Source of the DNA: a virus | Lineage: Duplodnaviria > Caudoviricetes | Virus record (IMG/VR): IMGVR_UViG_3300022660_000081 | Location: 2,500-66,499 of that record | Length of the DNA stretch: 64,000 bases | Strand: one strand, 5' to 3' | Part shown: positions 8,355 through 56,652 of the stretch, piece after piece | Position numbering within the stretch: the stretch's first letter is position 1 | Layout of the letters: every line of letters starts with the position of its first letter | Program-made: the position numbers and the translations under genes | Notes under the pieces: generated by a model | The model's database searches: none | Seen by the model: only the letters and a program-made list of their open reading frames with translations | Told to the model about the DNA's origin: nothing

Positions 8355-9515
8355 TTAAGCAACCAATACGTCAATACATCTCTTAGCACCTTCAGTGAAT
8401 GTCTTAATTCCGTACAAAGTCCAACAAAGATAGTTGTAACCAGTCTTTTTAGGCTCTTTGTTCTTTTGAACTGCAACATCTTTCTGAATAACCATATCAG
8501 AACATCCGTATTGTCCAGCCCAACAGTGTGCAACTTCTCCTCCTAGAGTAACTCCAGATTGAGAGTAAGCAACGTGTCCAGCTGTGATGATTTCTACGTC
8601 ACTTCCATTAGCAACTGCTTTAGCATTTACTCAAAGTAATTTTGCTCTGTCAGCAGCTGAGAACTCAACGTAATCTCCAGCAGTTCCCATTACTCCGTTA
8701 ATCATTCCGATTAAAGCAGCAGCAGATGGTTTACATTGTCCAGCAGCAGCAGGTGCAGCAGCGAAAGTAATTTTAGCACCGTTGATAGTTAATGTATCAG
8801 CAGCAGCCAAAGAAGAAACTGTAACTAAGTTAGAGTGAGCTACATTGTTAGAAACAAAGATATTGAAGTTACCCCAAGTTCCTAAGTATCCCATTCCTTT
8901 AAGTGTTCCTCTTAAAGCAGCATCAGCTTGTTGGAAACCGTTAACTAAGTTAGTTTGTTGGATGTTAGCTTTAACATCTGGAGTAATAACGAAGAACCAA
9001 GGTTTAGTATCTTCGATGTCGTTTGCATTCATTTTAGCCTCTGTAAGAGTGAATAATTTGAACGCATTAGCAACAGATACAGTTACTGGGTTTCCAGCAG
9101 TTCCTCACATATCTCCATCATCCATAGTGTATTCTGCATTTAATACTTCTTGTAAGAAAGCACCATCGATATCTTTCTTCAAAGCATAAGTCATACGGTC
9201 GATGTATTTGTTAGCAGCATCGTATTTATTCTGTTTAACATCGATTTCATCGATATATACAGTAGCTTCTTTTGATTTATTTACAACTAAGTATTCGTCA
9301 GTTGCAGATACATCTTGAACTGTAACATCAGTTCCTTTAACGTAGTTATTAACTACTACATCTGAATAATATGGTCTATGTACCATATCTCCATCTCTTA
9401 AGACAGCTTGTTCTTCCATTGAAGCTATCTCTCTAGCGATTAACTTCTTTTTAAGAAGTCTTTGTGTCCTAGCACTTCGGTACTCTGGACTAAAAGCATC
9501 TAAATTGTTTGCCAT
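8355..9515 (-). CDS. Phage A major capsid protein (P22-coat/N4-gp56-like), 386 aa
   Basis: Joins track fragments 9105..9515 and 8631..9032 through TGA. N-terminal AFSPEY(CGA=W)SA matches the common PExWS capsid motif. Strongly biased high-expression codon usage. Confidence 0.85.
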
Positions 9516-9548
9516 TGTTTGATATAAATAGGGTTAAAACGGTTTGGA

Positions 9549-10226
9549 CTATTTAATGTATCCAGCCGCAGCTCTTTCAGTCTTTGCCATTCCATCACTC
9601 CAAGCTAAGAAGTCATCATCACTCATAGAATTAAAGTCTTCTTGGCTCTTAGGGGTCTTGATAACCTCTTGTGGCTTAGCAACTCCAGTAAGAGTAGCAC
9701 CAGATTGTGACTTGTGTCTATACTGTTCGTCCAATAACAGTGTAGGGTCGTTTTGTGCAGCATATAATTGAAATGCCTCACTATACGATAAGTCCTTTTC
9801 GGCTCTTATCTTTTCAATACCTTCTTCGTGTCATTTGGCACTAGGGTATTTCTCATAGAAGTCAGCTTTTTCTTTTTCGGCTTCCTTCTGAAGTTCTTGT
9901 GCAGCTATACCTTCTTCTAGTTCTTTAATTCTAGCTTCTAGGTCAGCTGTGTCTTTAGCTTGAGCTTGTAGTCTTTCAACTTCTGCTCTTGCTTCATTCC
10001 TTTGTTTTAGGAGTTTCATAACGGAAGATTGTTTTTCTGTAGTGGTATCAGCTTTAGGTTGTTCCTTAGGCTGTTCTACAACTTCTTCCTTAACTTCCTC
10101 AGCTGGTTGTTCAGCTGTTTCTTGAGCTTGTGTTACTTCTTCGGCTTCTTGCTCGTCAGCTTGAGCCTCTAACTGCTCAATAGTCCCATCCAATTCAGCT
10201 TGGATGAGTTCGTCTTGTGTTGGCAT
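9549..10226 (-). CDS. Phage A scaffolding protein, 225 aa
   Basis: Joins 9831..10226 and 9549..9734 through TGA; Glu/Gln/Ala coiled coil; directly upstream of the capsid gene. Confidence 0.75.
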
Positions 10227-10346
10227 AATCGTAACAATTAAAGTATAAAATGTGCCTTATACTAGGGCGAAGGAGTTACAATTATATGTAGGTGCATAAC
10301 TAGGCTTGCTATACACCCCATATAATACCCTCGACTTGTATATCTA

Positions 10347-10868
10347 TTAAAGACCGTTAAGCTCTAAGCTACTTAGAGCATCAATTTGTTCTTGAACTTC
10401 TGCCTCCCTTGTAGCTTCTTCTTGCTGTTCCTTAACTTTAAGTTCCTCAGCAAGCTTAGAAGGTAAGTTCTCAAAGCATTCTATCCATCGGTTTTCAGCT
10501 CTGTATAAGTCTTCAGTTGTGTATGCGTCTTCATAAACTATATTATCTAACTTATACTCGTGTGTTTTACCAAGAAGCCTATTTATTCTCCAGTTCATAG
10601 ATTTCTCTAAGTCTGCAACCAAAGCTTCTCTAGTTTCTTTGTCCTTTACTTTTAGACCTCAGATTAACTCACTAATGAATTTAATCTCGTGTCTAATCAT
10701 ATCGGCTTCTGAATAGTAAGCAGTTCCAATTACATCTCATTCATCTCATTTCATTCACTCTAATAAGATTTTGTTTTGTTCCTCCTTACTTTCTCTTAGC
10801 TTAGCAACAGCTTTTTCCCATTCTTTGCTGTCTTTAAGGCTCTCGAGTTTAATAATTAATTCCTTCAT
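10347..10868 (-). CDS. Phage A hypothetical protein, 173 aa
   Basis: ATG at 10868 reads through TGA into track fragment 10347..10622. Confidence 0.7.
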
Positions 10869-10894
10869 TCTCTATATATTAGTAATATAAAAGC

Positions 10895-11080
10895 TTATTC
10901 AGTTGGAGTTTCTGTTTCAGTTGGAGTTTCTGTAGGCGTTTCAGTTGGTGTTTCTGTAGGCGTTTCTGTAGGTGTTTCAGTTGGAGTTTCTGTAGGCATA
11001 AGGTAATCTACTTCTGCTCTTTGTGCTGTTTGTACAGCTGGTATCCCCCACTGTCTTCTCTTTACTTCTTTCTTAAGCAT
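10895..11080 (-). CDS. Phage A 61-aa protein with a (PTET)n tail
   Basis: ORF track; 12-bp tandem units at ~10898-10998 encode PTET repeats; AT-rich leader upstream. Confidence 0.65.
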   Translation of the reverse strand: MLKKEVKRRQWGIPAVQTAQRAEVDYLMPTETPTETPTETPTETPTETPTETPTETETPTE

Positions 11081-11098
11081 TGTTAGTTACATTAAAGA

Positions 11099-13063
11099 TT
11101 AAATAATAGATGCAGCAGTAGCACTAGACTGTCAAGGTATCAAGTCTTGTCTTGATACGATGTTTTTATCAGCACTCTGCATAGCTTGTGACATTGCTAT
11201 ATTACTTGAGCTATTAGCCATCTCTGTGAATTGTGGGTTAACTTGCTGTTGTAAAGGCATTTTAACCATAGCATTTCTAAGAGCTTGTAATACAACGTCT
11301 TTAGCTTTAGTATTCTCAGCTTTCTGGAAGTAAACCCAGAAAGTTCTAAGGTATTCTTGTGGGTATTGGAATATAGATTTAGGCACAACATTAAGATTTA
11401 TCATCTCTACGAAGTTAATAGCCACAGTTTCATCATTTTCTAATGGAACTAGCACATTAATCTCGTTAGGTGTCTTTCCATTTACCCTATAACACATTCT
11501 TTGAGCTATTCTCTTACTTACATCTGGTGTAGATGGGTTGTTTAGCATCATTCATAGGTATTTATCCCAGAATATTTGCTCTTTTTCGTTCTTAGACTGT
11601 AAATCAGCCTTAGTTCAAAGTATAATGTGTGGAATTTGTTTAGTGAAGAAGTCATCTTTTCTCAAAGTTAGAGATTTTATCTCAAAGTTAGATACGATAA
11701 CTGCACTTTTCTCATCAACTTCAGAGAAATTCTCTTGATAACCTTTCCACCATTCAAACCAAAACCTTTTATCTCCCCAAGCATTAACTTTATTGTTAAG
11801 TAAACCAATAATGTTAGAGTTTGCTTGTGCTATTTGGCTCTCTGTGGCAGTTGTTCTACCTCCAGATACGATACCCTGCTGTAAACTATCTATATTTGTA
11901 TCGTGCATAGCCTCATTTTCAAGAGATGTAATCATATTAAGGCTATCAGCTTTGATTTGGCTTCTTGGCAACTCCATTCCAACATTAGATAAGTTCTCCA
12001 TAGTATCAACAAAGATGTTTCTACCATTAGTTGTTGGTTTAAGGATGTCGTCTTTATTCTTTATAAGTCTTGAGTTCCAGATGAAATCTCCACCTAGAGC
12101 TTCTTTCTTGGCTTTAATTATGTTTAAGTTGAATAATATTGTCTTTGCGATTTGTTTATCATCCAATTTATCACATACACTCTCTCCAAATGGGTCATTT
12201 CTTCTTGGTTTCCAGTAGTTTAAGATAATAGGAAACTCTATCATATCTGGGTTTTTCTTTTCCTCCTTTAATATAGGCTCTAATTCCTTTATTCTTAATA
12301 CAGTTCTTCTTGCATTTGTAAGAGTAACTATGTATTTCTTACCATTGAAGTTAGTAAAGTGATGATAAACATCTAAAGAGAAGTTAGTCTTTAGGTCATC
12401 ACAACAAGTTGGCATTACATAATTGTAAGCTGAAGCATAAGCTACCCAGTTTTGCTGTGTTTCTGGACTAAAGTATGCTCATACTACCTTATCTAACTGC
12501 TCTTTGTCGTAGCTTCCGTCTTCTATTAAGTCCATCATAGTAGTTGTGAACTCAAATCAGTGAAATCTGTATCAAGTTCAATCGAAACTACCAGTTTGAG
12601 AAGGTATAGGGTCTGGTATCCAACTTAGAGGGTTGATAACCATAAATTTAGGCATCTTCCTAACATCGTCCCAACCATATCTATATCTAATTCAAACTCC
12701 AAAGAAGTACCTATCTTGCTCTTTTTGATAATATAACTGCTGATAATCTTGTTCGTTATTATCGAACTCTGCCATATAATTAAGATTATCTGCTTTATCG
12801 GCAGACATCCAACCATCAGCTGAGGCGAAATTAACAGTTAATCAGTCAGTATAAGATGATGCAATAAGAGTATCAATAGAGTTTGCTATCATATTGATAT
12901 TGATTTTGTTTGGGTCTTTTGCTTGTTTGTCCCATCTGATAACTCTATCTCTATATTGGTTTCTCTTATTTACAACATAATCAAACCCAGCTTGATATTC
13001 TCTATCAATTTGGGCTAAGAGCTTATCTTGGTCTTCTTGGCTTAATACTTCGGAAATCTTCAT
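11099..13063 (-). CDS. Phage A portal protein (P22-like), 654 aa
   Basis: Joins 12842..13063, 11615..12415 and 11132..11551 through TGA; PIILNYWKPRRNDPFGESVCD segment; lies between TerL and scaffold. Confidence 0.8.
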
Positions 13064-13230
13064 ATTGATTAAGCAATATAAATTCTACTACCACAGTGAT
13101 TAAGTATTATTTATAGTATTTCAAGTATGCTATTGTTTTTATATATTGACATATTCTCAAATAAATCTGAAAACTTTTTTTAAAACTTTTTTTAATTTTC
13201 TCTTGATTTTTTATTTTTTTTCATTATAAA

Positions 13231-13445
13231 GGGAACGACACGAGCAGTAATGCTTGCGGATGGCAAGTTGAAGGGTCTTCGCCATCTCCGTATCTCATCC
13301 TATCGGATACCTCATACGCCAGTGTGTTATGAATGATACGGTGTGCCTAGCTTAAGATAGGTAAACTCTTTATAGGGAGAATTACGACAGATATACACAA
13401 AGTGCAGTATAAAAGTGTATAAAGTAATAGTTTTGGTCGTAATTA
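13231..13445 (+). ncRNA. Putative structured non-coding RNA, family unknown
   Basis: GC-rich island after TTGATT-N16-TATAAA. Helices: CGAGCA-GTAA-TGCTTG, GATGGC/GCCATC, CCGTATC/GATACGG, AATTACGAC/GTCGTAATT. Confidence 0.45.
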
Positions 13446-13630
13446 GCTAAGAAATTAGCGTGGAAATTAAAAAAATTTCTTGCTCTCTATAAAGGGTTTT
13501 GACACCATATCTAAGCCTTTCGTTTCCTATATCCAGTATGTTATAGTTTTAGGAAATTATTTAAAGAATATGATTTATAAGATAATATATAATATAAAGA
13601 ATAAAAAAGTGCGATTTTTTTAATTTTGTC

Positions 13631-13753
13631 TTGATTTTTTATAAAAAATATTTATAAATCTTCTTGCGAAGACCCAAATTTGCACATTAGCAAGAAATTA
13701 AAAATTTCTATACTGCTATAAAAGACCACAGATTTGTCACCTGTGGTTTTTTT
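13631..13753 (+). promoter_or_regulatory. Second promoter, short structured leader and intrinsic terminator
   Basis: TTGATT(13631)-N16-TATAAA(13653), same geometry as at 13203; hairpin ACCACAG/CTGTGGT followed by a T run. Confidence 0.5.
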
Positions 13754-13772
13754 ATTTACTACTATATATATA

Positions 13773-14003
13773 ATGATTAAGTACAAGCTAAGATGAGTGT
13801 CTATTGATTATTCGGAGAAACTCTGAAAGAGGGTTTTAGTTATTCCATTGGTTTGAAGACGGATAGACTGAAAGTATGATAAATATATTACAATGGATGA
13901 AGCATTAGATATTGTTAATGACGCAGTTATTGACCCTAATGAGAAAAACTCTATCCTAAGTAAGAAGGATAGAGCAACTTTCTGAAACAAGCCTTTATTT
14001 TAG
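13773..14003 (+). CDS. 76-aa hypothetical protein, opposite strand to the late operon
   Basis: MIKYKLRGVSIDYSEKLGKRVLVIPLVG... ends in TAG; open with TGA=Gly. Confidence 0.6.
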
Positions 14004-14038
14004 CGTGAATTTTTCTTATTTTTTAATTTTTTCACGCA

Positions 14039-15436
14039 CTAATATAGTAAGTCATCATAATCTATCTCGTAAGTACCAGTGATTATCTCACTATTAGCTT
14101 CTGTTTCTTGGACTAAGTATATCATTCTAAACATAATAGCATCTGCAAAGTCTGGTGAGCGGTTTATTCTTCTTTTGAGGTCTTTTTTATCCTCTATTTT
14201 TACCTTTCCATCTGTATCTATACCAGATATAAAGATGTTTTCTAGTTCTTCAGATAATCTATCCCTTATTACTCAGTCTGCATAAACTCTAACAAGCCTT
14301 TTTTCCATCATTTCTTTAAGCTTAAAGTAGCATTGAGCTTTTAGGTTGGCATAGTTTCTAAGGACTAATCATTTTTTCTCTGGCTCAAATCTATATGGAC
14401 GACTGTTGTTTACGAAATTGGTACATCATCTAAGCAAATCGGCTAAACCTCAACCAACTCCATCACTATCTATTACTATATTATGTCTTGATACATTATA
14501 TGAATATTCTAAATCTTTTATTCTGGCTGCTATCTCATCTATAGTATTCCTATCATAATGTAAGATTTTGATACATTCTAACCCCCTCCAAATACAAATA
14601 ACAGTCTTATCATCTCCAAGCCTAGCAACATCCACACTCATATACATTGTGTCCTTCTTTTCTATATTGGTTTCGAACAAGTCTTCGATTTCATCGTGTC
14701 TAAATAGCTTTCAAGCATCTCAAGACCAATCAAAGTTTCAGTATAGAAGCCTCTGTTTAGTAATCTCATCTGTTGAGTTCCTAAGCTGGTTTATATACTC
14801 TGGGTCTATAAACTCATTATCTGTAACTAAAGATGGGATAAATATTGTATCTTCTGGAAGCGTTCCACTCTTTCGTGGAGTATAGAACGTTCTCTTTACT
14901 CGTCACTGGTCTGGGTTGAAGGTACATAATAGCTTAGGTACTAAGCCATATTCCTTGTTTTTCTGCCTAGCAATACGTGTTTTTAGGATAGTAACAGCTT
15001 GCTCATCTATCTCATTCGCCTCATCTATGAAACCTCAAGTCAACTCTAAAGACCCAAACCTTGTGAATAATGGGTCTGCTGGCTGCGTAGCACAGTCTAG
15101 TAAGAGTATCTCACTTCCATTCTCAAACCTTATAATATTGTATTTCTTATCTAGCCTTCACATAAACTTTTTAGGTATTTCATAGATTTGTCCGATTTTA
15201 TAGTAGGTATTAACTGTTGTTTTCATAAGGTTAGATAATTCTCTACGTCCTATAAACCACCTTGTTCAAGGATATTTCCAACACATATATAATAATCGCA
15301 TAACTCAAACAACACTCTTACCTCATCAAGCTCATCCCCCAAATCAGATATTCCTATATGTATTATCAGTGAGATACTGCCAGCACTCTGCTTGCTTCTC
15401 AGTCATCTCAAACTGTGGGTTAAATAAGTTAGCCAT
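14039..15436 (-). CDS. terL: Phage A terminase large subunit, 465 aa
   Basis: Walker A GGGAGGGKS uses TGA codons; Walker B GFIDE; TFNPDQG(W)VKRTFYTP(W)KSG uses CGA for W; nuclease motifs VDVARLGDD and RSPDFADA. Confidence 0.95.
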
Positions 15437-15983
15437 CGTTTTCGTTAGCATCTAAAACTTCCCCCTCAATTACCTCTGGGGCTTTATGCTTAATAGTAAT
15501 AGTAACCTCTCAGATACCAGTAAAGTCTGTGCTTTCTTCCTTCTGTCTTCATACTCATAATCTATTAAGCCTATCCTTAATAGCATCGTGTCTTACTGCT
15601 GCTGGTACATCCTCATTCTGTATCATCTCCATCTGATAGTCTAAACATAACTCAGCATCAGTTGCTATCTTCTCCATAAGATAATCTCTTACCTTATCCA
15701 AATTCTTCATAGCTCTACCATTCCCTCTATCAGAAGCTAGCCATTCCTCTCTATTAGCTAAAGTACCCTTAGCAGCTCTATAAGCAGCTGTGGCATTATG
15801 AGATTGTAAGTATTCATCTACAAAAGCCTTTTGCTTCTCTGTTAGCTTCTTCTTCATAGCTATCTTATCATCTCACTTATACTTTCAGCTTCAAGGCTTT
15901 CAGTCCCTCACTATCTCTCTAATAGCTATAACGTTCTTTGACTTCTCTTGGGGTCATCTTACTTTTTCATTGCTTTCTTCCAT
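15429..15983 (-). CDS. terS: Phage A terminase small subunit, 184 aa
   Basis: LTEKQKAFVDEYLQSHNATAAYRAA HTH motif; extends both ways from track fragment 15555..15857 through TGA. Confidence 0.8.
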
Positions 15984-16345
15984 TTTGCTTTCTTAGAAAC
16001 TAAAGTAGTAGTAGCAATCTCTCAACTCTTAAACTCCTCCATCTTCTTCCTTATCTCCTCTACACTCCAAGCCATAAACGGCTTCTTATGTGTCATTAGG
16101 AAATAATCATTCCTCGCTCTATCCAACTCCCCATTATTCACTTCCTTCCCATACCTCTCAAATAGCTCATTCTGTAACTTGTTTAAGAAACCTAACACAT
16201 CCCAAGTAGGTAAATTCTCAAACCTATTAGCATACACCCTATACTCATTAATAAGCTTGAGTATAGCTTCTGCTTTCTCTGAAGCTTCTCTCCTCTCCAC
16301 TCCAGCGTGGTTGTTTTTGTTCTCTAAATCGATGAACTCAGCCAT
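15959..16345 (-). CDS. Phage A hypothetical protein, 128 aa
   Basis: Track 16022..16345 extended through TGA to TAA. Confidence 0.7.
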
Positions 16346-16367
16346 TTATTATGTTTAAAAGATAAAA

Positions 16368-16511
16368 TTACTTCTTTGCTCTATACTTAATAGAAAGCTC
16401 TTTATCCACTATCTTCCTACACTTTATACAATACTTAGCCTTCCTTTTCATCTCTACTCCACATCTCTGACAAACATTTCACCACCTATGCCCAAATATT
16501 ACATCCACCAT
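16368..16511 (-). CDS. 47-aa Zn-finger protein
   Basis: MVDVIFGHRWGNVCQRCGVEMKRKAKYCIKCRK: two CxxC pairs. Confidence 0.55.
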
Positions 16512-16556
16512 CTCATTCTCTATTATATAAATAAAACGTCCGAAAAACTCGGACAC

Positions 16557-16922
16557 CTAATCATTCCCATAACCTATATCTATCCCCTTATTCCTTAAAT
16601 TATCTAATATACTCTCTAAGGCAGCATTCTTATCTGAAAGTTCCTCGTTCTCTTTAGCATAATAATCTACATTTGCTTGTGCCTCCGCTAAAGCTTCACT
16701 ATCTCCCCCCAAAGAAGAAAGCAACTCCACTTCTCCTACAAGTATCCCTAAAAAATATTTCTCTACCTCCTTATATATAGCATAACTTTCTACTCAGTTT
16801 ATATTAAGAACAATAACCTCTCCTCTATCCATAGCTCTATCTAAGTACCTCGTATCGTCCGAAGCCTTCCCTAACTGGACTAATATGTCCGATTTCTTTT
16901 TATAAGTCCTTAATGAAATCAT
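16557..16922 (-). CDS. Phage A hypothetical protein, 121 aa
   Basis: MISLRTYKKKSDILVQLGKASDDTRYLDRAMDRG...; first gene of the leftward operon. Confidence 0.65.
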
Positions 16923-17379
16923 AGTTCTTAATACCGAAACTGATATAAATGACAGTTCTTTTATAAGCATTTGGTGTGCCGTGTCAAGAGAAAGTTTATT
17001 TTACTGATATTTTTGTCAGTAAATTGTTTTTTACCTTGGTGCGCGCGGTACAATACTATTGAAATTTTATGCGTTCTCATTTGGTTGCTACCCCTCCTCC
17101 GTCCGTCAAAATTTTTTTTTACAAGCAATTCTTAACTGATAAAACACAGCTGTCAAAAATTTTATTGACAGGTTGGGGCTTTTGAATTTTGGCTTTTTAT
17201 CTTAAAAGATAAAAGAAAAAAAAGAATATATCTTATTTATTACGTGTTTTTGTATATATCTTTTTTATATAGTTTTTTAATTAATTAATACTTATTTTTA
17301 TAAAGTTTTATTATTCATTATATAATATATATATCTTTATTATAAGTATTTATTTTTTTATCATATATTTGTTTATATT

Positions 17380-17575
17380 CTTTTTTGGATTTTTTAATTG
17401 TTTTTGATTTTATTTGTTTTTTTGATTTTTATTTTGATTTTGTTTTATTTATTCTTTTTGATTTTCTTTTATTATGTTTTTATTTGTTTTTTGATTTTGA
17501 TTTTATTTGTTTTTTTGATTTTATATTTTATATATTTTTTTGATTTTGTAAAACTTTTTTTGATTTTTTGATATA
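17380..17575. repeat. T-rich low-complexity array with about nine TTGATTTT copies
   Basis: Direct reading; a longer TTTTATTTGTTTTTTTGATTTT-like unit recurs about three times. Confidence 0.8.
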
Positions 17576-17730
17576 TCTTTTTAAGAGTTTTATTAATTCT
17601 TAATTGCTTTTTTATATGATAACTAAAAGTTATATGTTTTTTTATATTTTGTATTGATTTTTTTGATATTTTGAATAATATATAGTCGTTATAATAAATT
17701 TATAACTTTTTATTCTTTATTCTTATTCAA

Positions 17731-18039
17731 ATGAATACAACAACATTTAAAGTAAAAAACTTTTACCATTTAAATCAATTTGTTTTGGATAAAGATTGAA
17801 TAAGTATTTTTCAATCTTATAATTCCACTATTTGTATTATTGATTATTTTAATAAAGTTATAACTTTTTGAAATGATTATAACTATTCAAAAACAACAAC
17901 AAAACATTTAAAAATGTTTTTAAACGAATATTTATCAAATGTTTTTGAAAAAACAAAAGATATTGAAAAAATTATAAAAGATTGATTTTTTAATACTCCT
18001 TATAATGAATATAAAGTTGTTTTAAATTATGACTTATAA
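17731..18039 (+). CDS. First early gene of phage A, 102-aa widespread phage hypothetical
   Basis: NQFVLDKDGISIFQSYNSTICIID...DYNYSKTTTKHLKMFL resembles a common small phage family (recognised from memory). Confidence 0.7.
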
Positions 18040-18068
18040 AAAATTTTTATATCTTATTTATTATTAAA

Positions 18069-20960
18069 ATGTTTTGAATAATTCAAAAATACTTATATGA
18101 TAAAGAAAACTTATCTTTTGTTTTAGACTATTTAATAGACTATAAAGAAAAAAACAATAAAAAATTTAATATTGATAAAGCAAAAAACTTTTTAATTAAT
18201 TTATATATGAAAAAACAAAATAAAGAATTGACAAAAACAAAAATTAATGATAAAATAAATAAACTTTTATATTACATTCAATATGATTTTTAATTGATAA
18301 AACATAAACAAAAACAAAATTTTATATTTTAATTTTATCTTATGTATAATTTAAAAATATTTAATACAAAAAAAGAATTATTTAATTTTATAAACAAAAA
18401 TAAAATAAAAGATTTTAAATATAAATTATATCTTTTTGAATATAAAAACAAAATAATAAATAACTATTTTTTATCTTATAAATAATATTAAAAATGAAAA
18501 ATACTTGAATTAAAAATTGTTATAAAGATTTTAGACTTTTTCAATATTACAATATGAATATTGAAATAATAGACAATAATTTATTTTGTTTATGTTTTAA
18601 AGATAATTATTTTATTGTTTTTGATAAAGAAAATAAAGTTTTTTATATAAATAAACATTTATATAATAATTCAAAATATTTTAATAGTAAAACACTTTTT
18701 GAAAAAGTAAAACGCTTTTTAAAAACTTATTTATGAAAAACTATAAAAAGCAAAATAGACTTTATGATTTTTATTAATGAATGTAAAAATTTTAATAACA
18801 TTGATATAAAAGCGATTGATACATTATACTATAACATATATGAAAATACTATTTTATTTAATAATTAATTATTAAAATGAATAAAACTTTATCAATTAAA
18901 AATATGGATAAATATTGACTAAGTGAAAAATTAAAAGAATATATTAAAAGTGAAAAAATTTGTTTTTTTGCTTATCATATAGAAAAAAATGATTTTGAAA
19001 TATTAAAAAATATTAAATTCAATAATTGTTATGTTTATTGTGTAAAAGAATATTTTTATTCTTTAAAAGATACAAAAACAAGCTATTATATAAATTTTAT
19101 TAATAAAAGAATTTATAATGATTTTTATTCTTTAAATTATGATTTTTGAAAATTAAGATATTCATATTATTTTTATAAATTATAAGATTTTAATAAAGAA
19201 AAAAGATTTTTTGAAAATAATAATTATTTTTTAGACTATACATATAATAGCAAATTTTATAAAGAATATTTTAATAAATAATTTTATTTTATAACTTATT
19301 TAAAAATGAATTTAAAAGAATTAAAACAAGCTTTTATAATATTAAAAAGTCAAAAATTAATAGACTTTTATGAAATTGAAATATTGAAAAAAGAAAAATC
19401 ATAAAAGATTTATAACTTATTTTTGGATAAACGAAAACAAATATTCAATAGCTTTTGATAATGATTTAAAAAAAGATTTTGATTTAAAAAATGAAATAAA
19501 AAAACAAATAGAAAACAAAATAGAAAATTTAAATGTTTTATAAGTTTATTATTGATTGAAAATGAAAATAAAGCTTATTTTATTCTTAATATGATATATT
19601 TATCATTTGAGATTATAAACGTTGCTTATTTTAATTTTTACTATGGTATAAACTGTATTTTACTTTATCAAAATAACTTATTAAAACTTTTACTTTTTAA
19701 AAACTTATCAAAATGAAAAAATATATTTTAACAGATGATATATATTGTATATATCTTACAAAATCAAAAAAAGATTTAATAGACTTTACAAAATGATATT
19801 TAAAAGAGTGAAATATATTAAGCAATTTATGATTATACAAAATAAAGTATAATTCAAAAAAGATAGATATTGATAACTTTTTTTGAGATATTATAGCAAT
19901 AGATAAAAAAACAGATGAAAGCATAGACTATGATAATTATTTAAAATATTGAATTAAAGATTGACTATGTAAAAAAGATTTTTTATATCATAACTTATAG
20001 AAAAAATGTATATACTACAAGAACTTATTAACACTGACCCTATTAAAAAAACAAAAACACTAGAACAAATGGAAAAACGACTATTAGAAAAGGCGTATAA
20101 ACAAGTGTATTATGATAACCTAGATAAACAAACATATAGAAAATTATATAAAGAAATTACATACTGAAATTGATCAAAAGATTTAAACGCTTTTTTGGAG
20201 TATGAATTTTGAGTAAAAATTTTATATCTTAACTTATTATTAAAATGTATTATAGAATATTAGATGATTATTGATATCCATATTATTTTGGATATAATGA
20301 AAAATCTTTAAAAAGATTATCAAAATGGATATATAACGCAGAGCCAGACTTTTTTGATGAAAATGAATATGATGATAAGAAAATATATAGTAAATTAAAA
20401 AGATGAATATACAATATATGATGATATAATGTAGAAAAATCTGAAAAACCTTTTAGCAAAAAAGAACTAGAACAATCTTTTAACTTTTAATTATTATTAA
20501 AATGAATAATACAATAACAATAAATCAATTATACAAAATGTGTTTATATCAAATGAATAAATGAAATTGAGATAAACATATTATGATAACAACAGATGAT
20601 GAGCGAAATGGATATCATAACTTATTTTATTGATTTGTTTATGATAAAGATGAAATAGATAGTGTTTTAGAATATTCTTATCTTGATGAGTGAATAGATA
20701 AGGATAAAATAGTTTTACTTTGATAATAATAAAAATGGCAATAATATTTTACTTTATACTTTTAGCCTTGATATCATTATTTAATGATTAAAAAAGAATT
20801 AGACAATTTAAAATATAGGATATATAAGAAAAGCTGAAAAGCTGATTATATAACCTACAATCAATTTATACAAAATGAAAATGTAGCTTATACCTTTTGA
20901 GAACTACAAAAAAGAAAATCAAAAAAAGACTTGAAAAAGACAAAAAAATAATTATATATA
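18069..20960 (+). other. Cluster of about ten small, extremely AT-rich early ORFs (e.g. 18069..18293, 20502..20726)
   Basis: Short frames ending in TAA/TAG, each preceded by a TTTTATATCTT..TTATTAAAATG leader. Not all boundaries were resolved. Confidence 0.6.
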
Positions 20961-20996
20961 CATTGTTTTCATTTCTATGAAATAAAGAATAAAAGC

Positions 20997-21086
20997 AAAA
21001 AGCCTTTACTTGTAATGTGTGTTTTATGTAGGAGTTTAACACACTTACTAAAACACACAAACTCCTACTACAAGTAGGGGCTTTTT
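20997..21086 (+). promoter_or_regulatory. Long stem enclosing two mutually exclusive helices, followed by a T run, upstream of the replication gene
   Basis: Pairings 20997-21014/21069-21086, 21016-21026/21049-21059 and 21028-21037/21059-21068. Confidence 0.5.
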
Positions 21087-21121
21087 GTTTATTATGTGTT
21101 TTAACTCTTAATAGATACAAA

Positions 21122-21904
21122 ATGGAAATTCTACAAAATGGCTTTTGTATGATACCAAACATAGTATTATACGATAATGAATTATCTGATAAACAAAAAC
21201 TATTGTATTGAACTATCAGTAGTTTATGTGCTGAAAAATGATATTGTCGAGCTTCTAATGAATATATTTGAGAATTGCTTAACGCAGACAAAAGAACTAT
21301 ATCTAGAAATATATCTGAATTAGAGAAAAAATGATATATTCACCTATCATTTGATAATAATTATAAAAGATACATAGAACTTAATAGCGTAATTGAGAAT
21401 AAGGATAGTCAAAATTGTCTAGGGGGGTGGACAAAAATGTCTAGGGGGGATAGTCAAAAATGTCTAGATATAAATATAATAGATAAATATAAAATATATA
21501 ATGATGAAAATTTAGAAAATTCACAAGATACTAATGTTTCAATTCCTAAACAAAAAGATAGCAACACACAATCAAAGACTTCCGAACTTGACATTGTTAA
21601 AAATAGTGATGATATAAGAGATATATTTAATGATGATGAGATAGCACAACATAAGATACAATTAAAGATAATATTAAAAATGGTGGAGTTATGATATAAA
21701 GTTAAGAAATCAAAAGCAGATATAGAAAAAGAATTTGAACGATTAAAAGCAAAAGCAAAGTTATATTGATTAATTCAATGAGATTGAAACATAGCACGAA
21801 CAACATTTTATCAAAAGATAGATAAACGATTTGACTGGCATACAGAAAAATGAAAAAAGGTTAAGAATTTCAAAACAAGTATTATCCCTTTTATTTCTAA
21901 ATAA
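21122..21904 (+). CDS. Phage A replication initiator (N-terminal HTH_36-type), 260 aa
   Basis: LSDKQKLLYGTISSLCAEKGYC(CGA=W)ASNEYIGELL...RTISRNISELEKKGYI; contains internal repeats. Confidence 0.85.
21403..21467. repeat. Iteron-like repeats (candidate origin) inside the initiator gene
   Basis: Three copies of G(T/A)CAAAA(A/T)TGTCTAG, two linked by G runs; lambda O-like placement. Confidence 0.7.
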
Positions 21905-21913
21905 AATAACAAA

Positions 21914-22708
21914 ATGAATAATCAACAATTAGAAGTCTTATGAAAATTCGAGCAAATGCAAAAGCAACTCAAACAAAATGGTAGATTATGAGATAGCTGA
22001 CCTTGTGATATATTATATAACAAATGTAGTGGAGTAATACCTTGAAAGGTATATACAATATGAGCTTATAGTAATGTATGAAAATCTAAATTTGCTTACT
22101 GGCATATAGCTTATTTCCTAAAACAAGGTAAAAAGGTTTTGATTATAAATTTGGAGGTTGATGCACCTCATTGCTTTATGAATATCTTACAAGCAGTAAA
22201 TAATATGAATTATAGCGAGGTAATGGACTATAAACTAACAGATGATGATATAGACTTTTATAGCAACTTAACAATTACAGATGATTTGTATAGACTAGAT
22301 GATATAGTTAAGAAAATAGAAGAAGAACATTATGATATAGTATTTATAGATTTCGTGCAAAATATAGAATGAAAGGGTATGTGAGATTATGAAAAAAATG
22401 CAACAGTGGCAAAAACAATTCAAAGAACGGCAATAAAAACTGGCTCTACTATCTATTCATTATCACAATTAAGTAATTCAGTAGGTAAAGATGTAGCTTA
22501 TGGTAATATGGACTTTATATCTTTAAAATGAAGTGGAGAATACTTTGCTTCTAGCGACGTAATATTTATCCTAAGCAAACAAGATGATGAAATGATAGTT
22601 AAGATATCTAAAAACAAATATGGTAGAAATGGTGGTGAATATGCTTTTGCAGTAGATTTTGCTAGAAATCAATTCACCTTTAAAAGAACTAATGATTGAC
22701 TTGACTAA
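21914..22708 (+). CDS. DnaB-like replicative helicase (C-terminal domain only), 264 aa
   Basis: Walker A GAYSNVGKS; IVFIDFVQ; LSQLS; LKGSGE...SSDV; KNKYG. Confidence 0.85.
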
Positions 22709-22735
22709 AAATTTTAATTATTAATTATAATCAAA

Positions 22736-22936
22736 ATGGAAACTACAAGTAATGGTAATGTAATATACGCAAAAACAAAAGATTATTGCGCTATATGAAC
22801 TAGAAACTTTTTAGAAACTGTATCAAAAATGACCTCTAATGGTTGGACTTTGGTATCACAGTATGATGATTATAACAGTGTGTTATTATGCTTTGCTAAA
22901 TGAGAGTTAAAAGATTTACTTCTTAATCTAAAATAA
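22736..22936 (+). CDS. 66-aa hypothetical protein
   Basis: Open frame between the helicase and NinG genes. Confidence 0.55.
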
Positions 22937-23490
22937 TGATAGACCTATCTAAATACAAAAGCTTATGGAAAACCAAAAAAGCTTTGGAACAAGCAAAACC
23001 AGAAAAATGGCAAGAAATACTTAGATACTATTGACCTAAGGTATGAAAGCCAGTGGCAAAGATAAGTTGGAAATTACTTGCTGATAGAGTATTTAGTGAA
23101 TATGTTAGATTATACTACGCTGATGAGTATTGATATGTAAAATGTATAACAAGTGGAGTAAAGATGTTTTGGAAAGATAGTCAATGCTGACACTTTGTAT
23201 CCAGGTGAGTACTTAAGTATAGATACGATATAGATAATTGTCACCCTCAAAGTTATAGAGATAATGTAGAATTAAGCTGAAATTATAAAGTCTATACTCT
23301 TAAAATGATAGATATGTTAGGTAGAAAAAAAGTAGAATATATGCTTAATGATAAAAGCACAGTAAATTATTGACAAGAACGATATGAGAAAATGATACAA
23401 AAACGATATAAGTTTATAACAGAGAAAAAAGAACTGATTTCAAAAATGTCAAATGAAACTGATACTGATTTAGCAAGTATGGAGTTCTAA
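22936..23490 (+). CDS. NinG/Rap-like recombination endonuclease, 184 aa
   Basis: DRVFSEYVRL...KCITSG...WKDSQCGHFVSRG...RYDIDNCHPQ...GN. Confidence 0.75.
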
Positions 23491-23612
23491 CCTACAAACT
23501 TATAACAAAAAAATAGTATGAATTTTCTATTGAAATTATCAAAAAAATCATTATATATTCAAGTGCTATAATGACATAGCAAAAAACATTTATTTAATAA
23601 CCACTTATTAAA

Positions 23613-23804
23613 ATGACTTACGAAAAAGAAATTGACATTGACTGTTGGAACGACGAGCAACGACCAACAGAATTGTGCTGGGACTGTTTAGAGTTCTGAG
23701 AGTATCTAAGAGAAACTTGAAAAATTGACACCTCTGATGAGGAGTATGAAGCTTGGAGGGACGAGCAAATGGAGAGAGAATTAGAATTGTGTGAAACAAA
23801 TTAA
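23613..23804 (+). CDS. 63-aa very acidic protein
   Basis: MTYEKEIDIDCWNDEQWPTELCWDCLEFGEYLRETGKIDTSDEEYEAWRDEQMERELELCETN; follows a TATAAT promoter-like site at ~23566. Confidence 0.65.
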
Positions 23805-23830
23805 CCTTTTATATCTTTATTTATAGCAAA

Positions 23831-24031
23831 ATGAAATACACAGCTAATTACAAATGAGAGGAAATGGAATTTAATTTCCAAGAAACTTATGAGCCACTTG
23901 ACTTTGTTAGAAACAACGACGATGTAGATTTATTTAAGAAAGAGGGTGGTAAAGTTGTAATTGATTATGAATTAGTTATCAGACTTATGTCTGAATGCTA
24001 TAGCAATATGCTACGTGAGAATTACTTATAA
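23831..24031 (+). CDS. 66-aa hypothetical protein
   Basis: Open with TGA=Gly; conserved leader. Confidence 0.6.
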
Positions 24032-24071
24032 TTCTCAACAAAAAACTTTTAGAAACTAACTACTTATAAAA

Positions 24072-24278
24072 ATGAAAGGAACTATTAAAGCTGGACTATC
24101 CAGAACTTATGCTTTAAGGCAGTATGAAAATATCAAACCTATGATAGAAATAGAAATGGAATATGATAGCGAAAAAGACGATATACAAAAGATATTAGAA
24201 AGTATGAAAATCAAATGTGAGGACTATATTAAGAAGTTTGACCCAAGACCAGAGAATGATGAGCTACCTTTTAGCTAA
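24072..24278 (+). CDS. 68-aa hypothetical protein (acidic LPF tail)
   Basis: ORF track; RTYALRQYENIKPMIEIE. Confidence 0.7.
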   Translation: MKGTIKAGLSRTYALRQYENIKPMIEIEMEYDSEKDDIQKILESMKIKCEDYIKKFDPRPENDELPFS

Positions 24279-24346
24279 GACCCGAGCAAGTCTATAAACT
24301 GCTTAGCTGCTAAAAAACCTTTTATTTATTATTTATTATATTTAAA

Positions 24347-25051
24347 ATGACACGAGGAACAAACACAACAAGCTCAAAAAACTTTTTAAGAGCAAAATTA
24401 GAAAACTTTGGTAAATGACCAGACACTCCAAGATTTGTAATTACAAAATGGAATTGAATGGAGGCTGAAAAGGTATGAGAATGAGCCTTTATAGAAGGAA
24501 CATTACAAAAGATTACAGCAAAAGAAACTCAATATTGAACTTATGTATTATTTGATATAGAGGACGCAGAAAATAATGCTATCCAATGGTGAATGAAACT
24601 TTGACAAACAATGAGAAACATTCTATTTAAGTTATATGCACCAGCAAGCAAAGATATTAAAATCAATAACATTATGCTAAAGACTGGAGTATATAATGAT
24701 AAGAAATTTGTATCTATCTTAGTAGATGGTATGAAATATGATAACCCATTCTCTAAATGGAATGAGGCTTTCCAAAAATATGATGTATCACCAGAAATTA
24801 CAGAAAAGATTAGAATAGTAAAAGACCCAGAAACTTGAGAAGTAGTAAAAAAGGACGAAACAAAACTTGATGAATGGGTAGAACATTTAGTTATTCCTAC
24901 TATCAATAGTTGTTTAAGAAAAGAATGAGATGCTTTCTGGAGTATTGGAACTGAAACAAAAGTTGACTGAACTCCAGTAGAAAAGGACTTAACTAAAGAA
25001 CTTAAAGATAAACAAGACGATATTGATTTAGATAATTTACCTTTTAACTAA
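24347..25051 (+). CDS. Putative ssDNA-binding protein, 234 aa
   Basis: Includes track fragment 24611..24838; acidic C-terminus DDIDLDNLPFN. Confidence 0.55.
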
Positions 25052-25218
25052 GAGCTAAGCAACCTCTATAAAAGGCTTGCAAATCATAATGAATTTGCTA
25101 TAACATAGTTGCATACAATAACCGAAGCCTCATATATCAACGAGGGGAATAATCTTAAATGGTTATTGTGTGCCCCCTTGTTTATATATGGGGCTTTTAT
25201 ATTTGTATGCACACTACA

Positions 25219-25725
25219 ATGGCAAACGAAAATTATGAAAAGAACTGAAAGAAGTTCTTAAAATGTAAAGAATGTGGAGAATTTAAGGAAATCAATTCTG
25301 AAAATTGGTATCCACATAAAGAAGGGTATTTATGAGTTTTATGAAGATGTAAAGAATGTATTAAATGAGGTAGAAAGTCTGAACACGAGCTACAAATGTC
25401 AAGAATTAGAGATAGGGAAAGATATAAGAATAACCCCAAGAGGAGAGATTTTATATACAAAAGCTCAAGGCGTAGAAATAGAATACGCAATGAAGAAAAC
25501 AGAAATTGGAATTTAAGCCACGAGAGAGCCGATAGAAAAATAAAAAAGCTATGAGTTAGACCTAAGACTTGTCCTATATGTTGATATGAATGAAGAATAG
25601 TAGCTCATCATCCAGATATAAATATATGGAATGAAGTTGTATTCTGTTGCCAGATATGCCACGATAAGATACACAAAAACAAAATTGAATGCCCTAAACC
25701 ACTTGATTTACTTGCTAATAATTAG
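25219..25725 (+). CDS. HNH endonuclease with N-terminal Zn finger, 168 aa
   Basis: CKECGEFK...CKEC; CPICG...IVAHHPD...VVFCCQICHDKIH. Confidence 0.8.
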
Positions 25726-25728
25726 TGT

Positions 25729-26115
25729 ATGAGCTTAACTGATGAGGCTCAAAAGATTATCAATGCACCAGCTCAAACAGAGGACGACATCATACAATTA
25801 TCAAAAATAGTTTATATGATGTCCTCTCTGTATAGAGAGAAAATGAATATAGCTAACGAGCAAGAGCAAATGTATAATCTTACAAGAAGCCAAGAAACTC
25901 AAAAAGCTATGGAGGGCTGAAAAAAGATAACAGAGGCAGCTGAAATTGGAAAGCTAAAAGCAGAGGAACAGTATTGAGATTATAGAACAATGGAAGCTGA
26001 CTGTAAAGGAATGCTACAAGTTATGAACTCTATCAGAGAGTTTAAGATAGCTTGGTACGTATCTAATAAATGAACAACAGATTTTATTTCAAATAATCGT
26101 AATCTAAATGAGTAA
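25729..26115 (+). CDS. Helical hypothetical protein, 128 aa
   Basis: Track 25729..25920 extended through TGA. Confidence 0.65.
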
Positions 26116-26425
26116 TGCAGAGGAACTATTAGAGGAGTTATGAAATATAGTAAAATCATTTAATATCTTATGAATGACTAACTATATGTGATGCGACCCC
26201 TCGATATATAATGTATGGAAGAAAAGAAAAGTTCTACCATATAGGAATGTCAAAAAGATAGTAGAATATTTAGAAATGCACAATGACGATATAGTTGATT
26301 TGTGCTGAAAACTAATGGACTACTATAAGAGTGAGAGCAAAAAAAGAGATGAAAAAATCAACGCTACAATAGAAAGGAATAGAGAACGTAGCAGAGAAAG
26401 ATATAAAGCCACTCACTCAAAATAA
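26108..26425 (+). CDS. Putative HTH protein, 105 aa
   Basis: MSNAEELLEELGNIVKSFNILGMTNYMGCDPSIYNVWKKRKVLP; start overlaps the upstream stop. Confidence 0.55.
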
Positions 26426-26449
26426 ACTTTTATTTCTTTATCATTGCAA

Positions 26450-27139: not shown

Positions 27140-27141
27140 AA

Positions 27142-27414: not shown

Positions 27415-27419
27415 GAAAT

Positions 27420-27459
27420 TCGGAATTTCCGAAAATAGCAGAAAAAACGGAAATTCCGA
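27420..27459. promoter_or_regulatory. Pair of palindromic operator-like sites forming a 12-bp inverted repeat
   Basis: TCGGAATTTCCG (27420-31) and CGGAAATTCCGA (27448-59). Confidence 0.45.
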
Positions 27460-27497
27460 TTATTTAAACAATTTTATATCACTAAACAAGGAAAAAA

Positions 27498-32150: not shown

Positions 32151-32155
32151 TTTTT

Positions 32156-38374: not shown

Positions 38375-38396
38375 ATTTATATCTTACAAAAGAACA

Positions 38397-39671: not shown

Positions 39672-39696
39672 TCTTTATTTCGTATTTTAATTACAA

Positions 39697-40785
39697 ATGA
39701 ACTTCAAAGACCTTATTGCAGAAGCAAGAAAACAAGCAAAAATCTTCGTAAAAGAAGAAGTTGTAGAAAAGCCAGAAGTAGAAGAAGAAGCAAAAGCAAA
39801 CGAAGTTATGAACACGTGAGCTACAAACTTTTGAGCTGAATTAATTCCTACTAATGTAGTAGCAGACCCTTTACTTGATATGTTAGGAAACTATTCAAGA
39901 TTATTGCCATTACTTCCTTGAAATCACGGAAACAATATGGCTATTTCAGAAGTTGTTCCAGTAATTGGAGAAGCAAACTTATTCCAATGAAATACTGAAT
40001 GGACAACTGGTGCTGGAAGTCTTACACCAGCTAATAATTGACCAATGACTGATAAAGTAGTTATTTCTCAATGACAATTCATCACTACTGTTGATGTATC
40101 TGATAGAGAACTTACTTATGCTACTGATAGATTAGAAGCTATCATTAGAGAAAGAGTAAACAGAAGTGCTGGTGAAACTATTGACGCTGTAATAATCAAT
40201 GGAGATAGTGCAACAACTGGAAATGTAAACTGAACATATTCAGCAACTGCTTACTACGCACAGCAAGATAATGGAATCAGAAAAGTTGGAATCGCAAATA
40301 CAGCTATTTCTGTTGGAACTCTTACATCTGCACAATATCTTGCAGTTAAAGATGTTCTTGACCCAAGATATCAAGCTGAATTAAATGACTTATTATTCAT
40401 TGAGCCAAGCAATGTTTATAGCAAATCATTAGCTTTGTCTGAATTGATTACTATGGACAAATTCTGACCAAACGCAACAATATCAACTGGTGTTTTGGCT
40501 AAAATCTGGAATATAGATGTATTAGTTGCAAAGAACTTCCCAGCAAAGACTGATTCAACAGGAGTTGTTTCAGCTACATCTTCTGATAATACAAAAGGAA
40601 GTTTCGCTTGTGTTTATAAGCCAGCTATTCAGTATGGTTTCGGAAAACCTTTACAAATCGAAGTTGGACGTGTTCTTGGAAAAGGAATCAAAATCGTTGC
40701 AACTATGGAATTCTGATTCGCTATTGTAAACAACAAAGCTGGACTTGGAAAGACAGTTGGACTTGGAGTAAATGTTTCATTATAG
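39697..40785 (+). CDS. Phage B major capsid protein (HK97 fold), 362 aa
   Basis: GAELIPTNVVAD...; IDAVIINGD; follows the protease; terminator after the stop. Confidence 0.85.
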
Positions 40786-41076: not shown

Positions 41077-41667
41077 ATGAGCTATTCAACACTTGCACAA
41101 TTCAAAGCCTATCTATGAATGGACGAATCAGATACGAGTCAAGATACACTTTTGACATCATTCTTGAATTCAGCAAATGAGAAGTTGAACAATCTTTGTT
41201 GAGTAGATAGTTTTTCTCTATGAACACAGAAACAAACTATTGAATCAAGATGAATATATGATTCACCAAGATGACTTGAATTCTATTTGAAGAATAAGCC
41301 AGTTGTAAGCATTGATAAAATCAATTGAGAAGCAACGCCACGAGTAAAGTGAACAGATTATCTTGTTATCTATGACAGAAGAATAATTTGTAAGAAAATA
41401 GCTTTGAATGATTGGTGAATGGCTGAAATCGAATATACAGCTTGATATCAAACTATTCCAGATGATTTGAAACTAATGGAAATGATGTTAGCAAGCTGAA
41501 TGCGACAAGAACATAATTACGAATGAGTTCAATCTTATAGATTATGAGATGAATCAATCACATTCGGAAGTAAGACTTGAAGCAACTGAACATTGACACC
41601 AGATGACCAATATTTCAGCTTTTCAACACTTCTAAACAAATATAAGAACTTTAATTTGCCAATCTAA
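41077..41667 (+). CDS. Head-tail connector (gp6-like), 196 aa
   Basis: YSTLAQFKAYLG...DTLLTSFLNSA...IEYTAGYQTIPDDLK...YRLGDESITF. Confidence 0.85.
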
Positions 41668-54684: not shown

Positions 54685-54764
54685 GAAAAGCCAGTTTGTT
54701 TCGTTAGTAAAAAAATTCTTGCAATCAGATATCTATTCAATATGAAATAGATTACTTCGTATGA

Positions 54765-54792
54765 AAAAAGCACCGTTCTGGTGCTTTTTGTT
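54765..54792. terminator. Bidirectional terminator
   Basis: AAAAAAGCACC-GTTCT-GGTGCTTTTT between convergent genes. Confidence 0.8.
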
Positions 54793-54793
54793 A

Positions 54794-55525
54794 TTATTCA
54801 GATGTAGTTTCTTCTGTTGGAGTTTCTTCAACTGGTGCTTCACGCATATAGACTATATGTTCTTGTCATTTGATGTTGTATTTGAAGTAATATCATTCAG
54901 AATCTCTTGGAACTTCATATACAAGCTGAACAAGTAAAGGAATTCAAGGTTTAGAAGTGAGCATTGCTGGTCGATTCTTTACGTAGAAACTGCAAGACAT
55001 TCAACAATCTATTTGAGAATAGCTTCTTCATTGAGAATCATAGATTTTAGGAAACATATTTGTTCGAAGCGTTGCTTCTGCACCTTGTTCATTCTGCACC
55101 TGGAATGAAACAATAAGATATTTAGACATACTTCAAGCAACAAGATTTCATTCGAACATATTATTGCTTTTTAGAGTTGTTTCTTCTTGTATTTCTCACG
55201 GATATATTCAGATTCAATTTTCTACACTTCATCGAATATCATCTCATCAAATGTAGTGAACGATTGGAGTCTTATCAGCAGAACTTCATCATCAGTTTAC
55301 ACGTTTTTCTGCTGAATTGTTTCAGATGTATCAAATAATTAGAAGAATTATGAAGATAGATACAGCCCAGCCAATACATCACATCTTTTTCTTTTTAGTT
55401 TGTTCTACATAAACGACCTTTTCTTCTTTTGCTGATTCCTTTTTACTTCAATCAAGGAATTCTCAACAATGCTTGCATTTTTTAGCACCGTCTTTGATTT
55501 CTTCATTACAGAATGGACATTGCAT
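54794..55525 (-). CDS. Zn-ribbon + TM + extracellular (DUF4352-like) protein, 243 aa
   Basis: MQCPFCNEEIKDGAKKCKHCGEFL; one TM helix; beta-rich ectodomain ending LVYEVP; divergent from the recombinase gene. Confidence 0.7.
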
Positions 55526-55653
55526 AGCGAACGACATTAAGATATAAAGTTGATTAATATATACAGTTATCAAATTGGAAGTAAACTATAAAATTAGAAT
55601 TATCTTTACATTTCAAAGAAAATATATATAGTATAGTATGTTGACATAAGCTT

Positions 55654-56652
55654 ATGAAATACACACAGCTTTTTATATGCTTATGTTTTTCAAATATGCA
55701 CGAATTCAGACAGACATTACAAGACCGATGTGATTATGAAAAGGAAGTAAAAAATCATAATTCACGAGAATATAGATTTTGTATGGTGAGATGTTTCTTT
55801 AAGCGATTAGTTGCAACTAATAGACCAATTATTATCGAAGAAATAGAGCTTTCAGATATTATAAATTACTTGATATATTATAAGACAACACCTATCAAAG
55901 CAAAATGACATAAAATTTGAAAATTCCCAACAAGGAATGCAGAATACAATTCAGTATGTTCAATCAGATGTTTCTTTAAGTATTGCTGTATTGTATGAAT
56001 GAGATTGAAATTCAATCGAGAACAGATTCCGATGTTCAAACAAGATGAAGCAAGACGTGAGCCAATGAGCAATGAAGACTTTGAATTATTACATCAAGCT
56101 ATAAAGAAATATGCAAAATCAGAAGAAATCAGAATCAGAAATGAATTGATGATAGAAATACCACGAGAAACTTGATTAAGAAGAAGCGAAATAGTCAGAT
56201 TAAGATTTGCAGACTTTCATAATCAGAATCGTCAATGCCGTGTTCTTGTAAAGTGAAACAGATATGAATCAGTTTTCTATTCAGAAAAGCTACAAAAGAA
56301 AGTTCTTGATTACGAGAAGCTACTTAATGAGAAATATAAAACACTTGATATTGAATATATATTCATATGTTTAGGACAAAAAGAGAAATGAAAGATAATG
56401 ACTAATGATTTGCTATGATGAAAATTCAGAAGAATAGTAAAAAGAATGCAGAAAGATTGAATGCTTCCAGAATGAAAAAATTTAAGTCTTCATCAAGAAA
56501 GACATTCATTTGCAATGAGATGTGTATATAGCTGACTATCACAACAAGCAACAACCCAACTAATGCGTCATAAAGACCCAAAGATTACGCTTCATTACTA
56601 TCATATGAACGATTCACGACTATTGAATCAATACGATTCGATTTGTGTGTAA
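55654..56652 (+). CDS. Tyrosine recombinase (XerC/D-integrase family), 332 aa
   Basis: TGLRRSE (R), VKGNR (K), HQERHSFA (HxxR), LMRH (H), TLHY (Y). Confidence 0.92.

Follow-up and report, generated by a model that had tools for sequence, protein, structure and literature searches.

Comparative evidence for UGA as glycine and CGA and CGG as tryptophan in two tailed phages on one contig

Two phage gene sets and the sense codon UGA

The window analysed here, 64 kb of the 66.5-kb single-contig virus record IMGVR_UViG_3300022660_000081, carries two sets of tailed-phage genes, among which Pfam recognises two terminases, a portal, a capsid, a protease and an integrase as hallmark genes. The contig carries two tailed-phage genomes, phage 1 and phage 2, which are either arranged in tandem or nested, or joined as an assembly chimera. 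Comparison with relatives indicates that both phages very probably read UGA as glycine and CGA, together with the rarer CGG, as tryptophan by means of host decoding, and that AGA, AGG, CGU and CGC stay arginine and UGG stays tryptophan. This is the code predicted for Absconditabacteria (SR1), in which CGA and CGG were assigned to tryptophan by Codetta (Shulgina and Eddy 2021, PMC8629427) and UGA to glycine by Campbell 2013, as cited in PMC8629427. The main blocks are as follows.

1 to ~17000, minus strand: late genes of phage 1, including tail genes, capsid (8355-9515) and large terminase TerL (14039-15451)
to ~26100, plus strand: early genes of phage 1
from ~26400, plus strand, ~34 kb: phage 2 unit, with a C5 methyltransferase, TerL, portal, S78 protease and tyrosine recombinase

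When TGA is taken as a sense codon, open reading frames (ORFs) of at least 100 amino acids cover 82% of the window, as against 13% under code 11; readthrough of TAG or TAA gives 20% and 50%, respectively. The hallmark genes together with this gain in coverage place the contig with the phages and prophages of code 25 whose predicted hosts are Absconditabacteria and Gracilibacteria (Liu et al. 2023, PMC10746230); these are likewise tailed and rich in in-frame TGA, can be read only if TGA is a sense codon, and carry no tRNA for it. To assign the code, that study compared coding density between tables 11 and 25; its text mentions neither CGA, CGG nor arginine, which leaves the second reassignment unaddressed. 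Our literature search, incomplete in its coverage, found no report of CGA or CGG as tryptophan in phages, and such a report may nonetheless exist.

Strand-consistent ORFs (16,860 codons) contain 828 TGA, 114 CGA, 5 CGG and 137 TGG codons. Their meanings were read from 51 related loci on IMG/VR and GTDB contigs: window proteins, with X in place of the residues from CGA and CGG, were aligned by tblastn, and the subject codon was recorded opposite each window codon. The test is independent of database translation choices; the loci are not mutually independent. The partners of TGA include GGA 472 times, GGT 408 times and GGG 130 times, and a BLOSUM62-based inference assigns TGA to glycine (score 2.41). 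The individual motifs point the same way. The Walker A motif GGGAGGGKS of the phage 1 terminase, TerL1, is written GGG GGA TGA GCT TGA TGA GGT AAG AGT (15340-15314, minus strand), with three glycines from TGA; motif IV of the methyltransferase, GGSPCQG, is TGA TGA AGC CCT TGT CAA TGA (32794-32814), again with three; and TGLR of the integrase is ACT TGA TTA AGA (56170-56181), with one. A preliminary description of this DNA had named these motifs as invariant glycine positions filled by TGA, and all of the codons are there.

CGA and CGG at tryptophan positions

The codon exchange gives the following partners in the relatives.

Window CGA: CGA 258, TGG 126, TAT 23, CGG 22, TGA 18
Window TGG: TGG 809, CGA 94
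Window CGG: TGG in 20 of 44
Window AGA: AGG 342, CGT 138, CGC 43, AAA 255; TGG essentially absent

None of the arginine codons AGA, AGG, CGT and CGC is among the ten commonest partners of CGA in the 51 loci. Counted by site, TGG occurs in a relative at 33 of the 90 covered CGA sites, a tyrosine or phenylalanine codon at 22 and another arginine codon at 1, whereas the 407 covered AGA sites have TGG at 3 and another arginine codon at 155. By Fisher's test the two sets differ both in TGG (p = 5.5e-24) and in arginine codons (p = 1.8e-15), values that overstate the evidence because the loci are not independent. In the reverse view, CGA or CGG appears in a relative at 36 of 91 window TGG sites. The BLOSUM62 inference ranks tryptophan first for CGA (2.44), followed by tyrosine (0.82), phenylalanine (0.18) and methionine (-0.69), with arginine outside the four best. 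It was correct for 11 of 12 control codons (AGA, AGG, CGT, CGC, TAT, TTT, AAA, CAA, CTA, GGA and GGT); the twelfth, TGG, was inferred as tyrosine or phenylalanine because its synonyms CGA and CGG had been masked. Tabulating the residues opposite CGA and CGG in homologues, which had been suggested in advance as a check, favours tryptophan.

CGG had been considered too rare to assess. This does not stand: through relatives it can be assessed, and it behaves as tryptophan with a score of 3.53 from a thin sample of 5 covered sites. TGG is found in relatives at 3 of them and a phenylalanine or tyrosine codon at 1; the fifth is opposite CGT, in a doubtful minus-strand ORF. The evidence holds for each phage on its own: in the phage 1 region, relatives have TGG at all 3 CGG sites and at 6 of the 13 CGA sites covered, and in the phage 2 region at 25 of 64. 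Within the contig itself, a paralogue pair in a 529-bp direct repeat has, at the same codon, CGA in the left copy (28707-28709 in 28677-29205) and TGG in the right copy (62933-62935 in 62903-63431).

The composition of the window was compared region by region, with tryptophan given first for TGG only and then with CGA and CGG included.

1-17000, phage 1 late: Trp 1.32%, then 1.54%; CGA/CGG 14% of Trp; TGA 61% of Gly
17001-26200, phage-1-like early: Trp 0.91%, then 1.44%; CGA/CGG 37% of Trp; TGA 67% of Gly
26201-56950, phage 2: Trp 0.45%, then 1.46%; CGA/CGG 69% of Trp; TGA 83% of Gly
56951-64000, right end: Trp 0.81%, then 1.78%; CGA/CGG 54% of Trp; TGA 93% of Gly

Once CGA and CGG are counted, tryptophan content evens out across the four regions, at 1.44-1.78% as compared with 0.45-1.32%. 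This means that under the default assumption, in which CGA is arginine as in the standard code and the CGA/TGG pattern comes from frequent Arg-to-Trp replacement or from alignment noise, phage 2 would have an implausibly low tryptophan content. Public protein databases follow this assumption and translate CGA as R. However, CGA almost never swaps with the other four arginine codons, while AGA, AGG, CGT and CGC swap freely, and the change from CGA to TGG takes two base changes and is yet the commonest exchange. Moreover, homologues in the standard code, including DNMT3, have W opposite CGA, as described below for the methyltransferase. Judged from the codon exchange and the methyltransferase columns, the arginine reading appears already refuted, and we give it practically no weight.

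The genes in which single codons can be followed are listed here.

5875-7386, minus strand: structural gene; CGG codons 140 and 466
8355-9515, minus strand: major capsid protein, Pfam Phage_capsid_2, below the curated cut-off (23.7 vs 25 bits); CGA codon 13
14039-15451, minus strand: TerL1 large terminase, Pfam Terminase_6N/Terminase_3; CGA codons 52, 184 and 193
21122-21904, plus strand: replication-initiator-like gene, Pfam HTH_36; CGA codon 43
32593-33546, plus strand: C5 cytosine DNA methyltransferase, Pfam DNA_methylase, E = 9.7e-51; CGA codons 148, 189 and 304
34148-35620, plus strand: TerL2 large terminase of phage 2, Pfam terminase RNaseH-like domains; CGA codons 78, 90, 244 and 260, no TGG
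36302-37546, plus strand: phage 2 portal, Pfam Phage_portal, E = 8.9e-49; CGA codons 173, 342 and 356, CGG codon 338
55654-56652, plus strand: tyrosine recombinase (integrase), Pfam Phage_integrase; six CGA codons

Homologues of the methyltransferase were taken as 150 representatives of 50%-identity clusters, whose median tryptophan content of 1.1% means that they mostly use the standard code. CGA codon 148 falls in a column with W in 143 representatives, R in 5 and Y in 2, and codon 304 in one with W in 120, F in 21, M in 3 and R in 1 (145 representatives); both are opposite W in DNMT3A/B/C. Codon 189, in a variable region, gives no information. AGA encodes the catalytic arginines of the QNRKR motif (codons 143 and 145), whose columns have R in 150 of 150. 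In the integrase, the catalytic arginines of TGLR and HxxR are AGA, codon 322 is opposite TGG in relatives, and codon 171 is opposite tyrosine in XerD and TAT or TAC in relatives.

In phage 1, TGG is present in relatives at all three CGA codons of TerL1 (18, 5 and 2 loci for codons 52, 184 and 193), at capsid codon 13 (9479-9477; TGG in 13 loci, CGA in 6) and at initiator codon 43 (21248-21250; CGA in 3 loci, TGG in 1). The two CGG codons of the structural gene are opposite TGG in 7 and 12 loci. A sequence search of the PDB with TerL1 gave no match at E <= 0.1. The preliminary description had placed CGA at conserved tryptophans in the capsid (PEY-x-S), TerL (G-x-VK and P-x-K), the initiator (GYC-x-ASN) and the methyltransferase (RLY-x-TN and GNG-x-TV), with catalytic arginines on AGA. 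The capsid and initiator codons are those just given, the terminase codons are at 14902-14900 and 14875-14873, and the methyltransferase codons at 33034-33036 and 33502-33504 fall in columns that are mostly W; the use of AGA is borne out in both enzymes.

For TerL2, standard-code Mu-like terminases from Helicobacter, Klebsiella and Mannheimia phages are informative at only one of the four CGA sites, codon 78, where 3 of 4 have W. In 120 database homologues, hardly any residue other than R or W occurs in columns 90, 244 and 260, the pattern expected of two synonymous codons, CGA and TGG, the first of which is annotated as arginine. These 120 public proteins have a mean tryptophan content of 4.7%, and gene callers have therefore apparently read TGA as tryptophan (table 4), not as glycine. 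This suggests that the public entries are wrong at two kinds of codon, with TGA given as tryptophan and CGA as arginine. A metagenome-assembled genome (MAG) of Candidatus Absconditabacterales includes a contig with a further relative of TerL2 (45% identity). In the portal, codons 342 and 356 are TGG in relatives and CGG codon 338 is opposite TTC or TAT; standard-code portals, at 24-26% identity, are too distant to inform its CGA and CGG sites.

Several points weigh against our reading, in addition to the overstated p-values. All support for the codon meanings is comparative. CGA codon 93 of the ORF at 32156-32584 is opposite AGA or AAA in relatives, and several CGA sites are opposite the glycine codons TGA or GGA, for example codon 89 of 41077-41667. 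The MAG contig with the terminase relative, which is the sole host link and an indirect one, could be a mis-binned phage contig. We read the exceptional CGA sites as ordinary one-base amino-acid replacements; they may hint at residual ambiguity. As a separate observation, codons 3, 4 and 40 of 23645-24031 are CGA opposite AGA/AAA or TGA/GGA in relatives, not opposite TGG or aromatic codons; with codon 93 of 32156-32584 and codon 89 of 41077-41667 they make up the few sites at odds with CGA as a conserved tryptophan.

Such sites would be expected if CGA were ambiguous, mostly tryptophan with some arginine, or if its meaning varied with the host strain and reassignment were incomplete. Indeed, varying stages of CGA/CGG reassignment among hosts are described in PMC8629427, and 12 AGA codons of the window are opposite CGA in relatives, besides codon 93 of 32156-32584. 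Against this, the relatives have an arginine codon at just one of the 90 CGA sites, CGA occupies invariant tryptophan columns of the methyltransferase, and as the majority tryptophan codon of phage 2 it would make misreading costly. We consider an ambiguous CGA improbable and tryptophan as its regular meaning the better account.

Decoding and the putative host

A tRNA-His(GTG) at 63915-63989 on the plus strand, found by both ARAGORN and Rfam and provided with an encoded CCA end, is the sole tRNA of the 66.5-kb contig. Neither program finds a tRNA(UCA) or tRNA(UCG) on the contig, in agreement with the earlier statement that the window has no tRNA-Gly(UCA) or tRNA-Trp(UCG), and 37 related loci, each spanning at most 21 kb about the terminase or portal, have no tRNA. 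Because such tRNAs are found neither on the contig nor in these loci, we infer that TGA and CGA are decoded by tRNAs of the host. Such a host would use a glycine-type tRNA(UCA) and a tryptophan-type tRNA(UCG), and no release factor would act at UGA.

It is also conceivable that the decoding tRNAs are encoded by the phages themselves, in genome portions missing from the contig. Phage 1 is cut by the contig start and looks incomplete, as its relatives are 35-42 kb long, and the tRNA-His demonstrates that tRNA carriage occurs. But the ~34-kb phage 2 unit appears complete without any tRNA, and neither the rest of the contig nor the related loci supply one; we therefore regard this possibility as very unlikely and retain host decoding. 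An analogous dependence is known, since phages follow a host reassignment of AGG to methionine without a decoding tRNA (Shulgina and Eddy 2021, PMC8629427). There too a host sense-codon reassignment is adopted without carrying the tRNA, with another codon, another amino acid and a host from another phylum.

The Absconditabacterales MAG carries candidates for both tRNAs. Its tRNA(UCG) shares A1:U72 and G73 with its tRNA-Trp(CCA), whereas the acceptor stem of its arginine tRNAs (UCU, CCU and GCG) is different and their discriminator is A73; in the tRNA(UCA) of the MAG the discriminator is U73. These features match the identity rules used in PMC8629427. No host link comes from the tRNA-His of the contig: it agrees with that of the MAG at only 49 of 77 positions and is therefore probably carried by the phage, as opposed to marking a host attachment site.

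The putative host is a member of the Absconditabacteria, the lineage to which the preliminary description had pointed from the code. The code of the phages does match the prediction in PMC8629427, with the same three codon meanings, AGA as the main arginine codon, AT-rich DNA (~31% GC) and CGG much rarer than CGA; it is seen here in phage DNA and there in bacterial genomes. CGA usage differs: phage 2 and the right end have 96-98 CGA per 10,000 codons, as opposed to below 37 in every genome of PMC8629427. The notion that the phages use CGA more than any host was dropped, as the sampled Absconditabacterales MAG, newer than those genomes, has CGA at 83 per 10,000, with TGG at 53 and CGG at 13 (28,299 sampled codons). 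The frequent use of CGA would therefore belong to the host and be mirrored by the phages.

The displacement of codons goes furthest in the relatives of phage 2. The counts of TGG and CGA are 0 and 26 in locus L005, 5 and 55 in L007, 4 and 38 in L049, 14 and 82 in L047, and 13 and 56 in L001, and TGA makes up 76-98% of the glycine codons in these loci (98% in L049). Across loci, the CGA share of tryptophan and the TGA share of glycine rise together (Spearman 0.43, p = 0.003, loci not independent). It is possible, and we offer this only tentatively, that in the phage 2 lineage CGA has almost replaced UGG for tryptophan and UGA almost replaced GGN for glycine, and that tRNA-Gly(UCA), being heavily used and perhaps able to wobble-read UGG, could select tryptophan out of the UGN box. 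Ambiguity of tRNA-Gly(UCA) at UGG was raised merely as a possibility in PMC8629427.

Contig arrangement and consequences of the recoding

Two further features of the window are listed here.

18000-20000 (18-20 kb): AT-rich gap, 13% GC, no genes recognised, separating the late genes of phage 1 from its divergently oriented early genes
38256-39671, plus strand: S78 protease of phage 2 (Pfam), part of the capsid/protease genes at 38256-40785

The early genes of phage 1 keep their synteny in its relatives. The relatives of phage 2 are contigs of ~34.8 kb, and 57-64 kb of the window is similar to their early region. The two copies of the direct repeat are 96.8% identical, lie 34,226 bp apart and flank the phage 2 unit; in L001, genes like those at 58973-61402 stand immediately ahead of genes like those at 29806-33546. 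Given the repeat spacing, the length of the relatives and the gene order of L001, 29.2-63.4 kb looks like a single circularly permuted phage 2 genome, inserted or assembled into a phage-1-like early region.

Other IMG/VR records of ~60-65 kb also have two terminase copies ~30-33 kb apart. In G004 (64.4 kb, the record behind L050) they are at 12758 and 46114, and in G005 (63.1 kb, the record behind L054) at 16589 and 46303; two-genome contigs thus recur in this phage group, either because prophages lie in tandem or because the assembler joined strain variants into dimers. In another relative, G002 (the record behind L032), the TerL1-like gene is in two pieces ~1 kb apart (20133-21128 and 22194-22604), which suggests an element inserted inside it, e.g. 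an intron or homing endonuclease. The DNA of the window occurs in animal-faeces metagenomes: for 26000-30000, 93-98% of sampled words are found in such runs of 2018, which does not imply contiguity.

The finding is confirmatory, as recoded phages are an expected consequence of the published host code, and its value lies in correcting annotation and in providing a host marker. Tables 11, 4 and 25 all mistranslate these phages. Because CGA and CGG would be tryptophan here, standard tables turn about half of the phage tryptophan into arginine, and table 25 still does so for 14-69% of the tryptophan residues, depending on the region. Mistranslated public proteins degrade homology searches as well as structure prediction. 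The double recoding is a strong marker, available from sequence only, of an Absconditabacteria host. Furthermore, reassignment of a sense codon would not shield these bacteria from phages, since these phages track the code and their CGA use about equals that of the sampled Absconditabacterales MAG.

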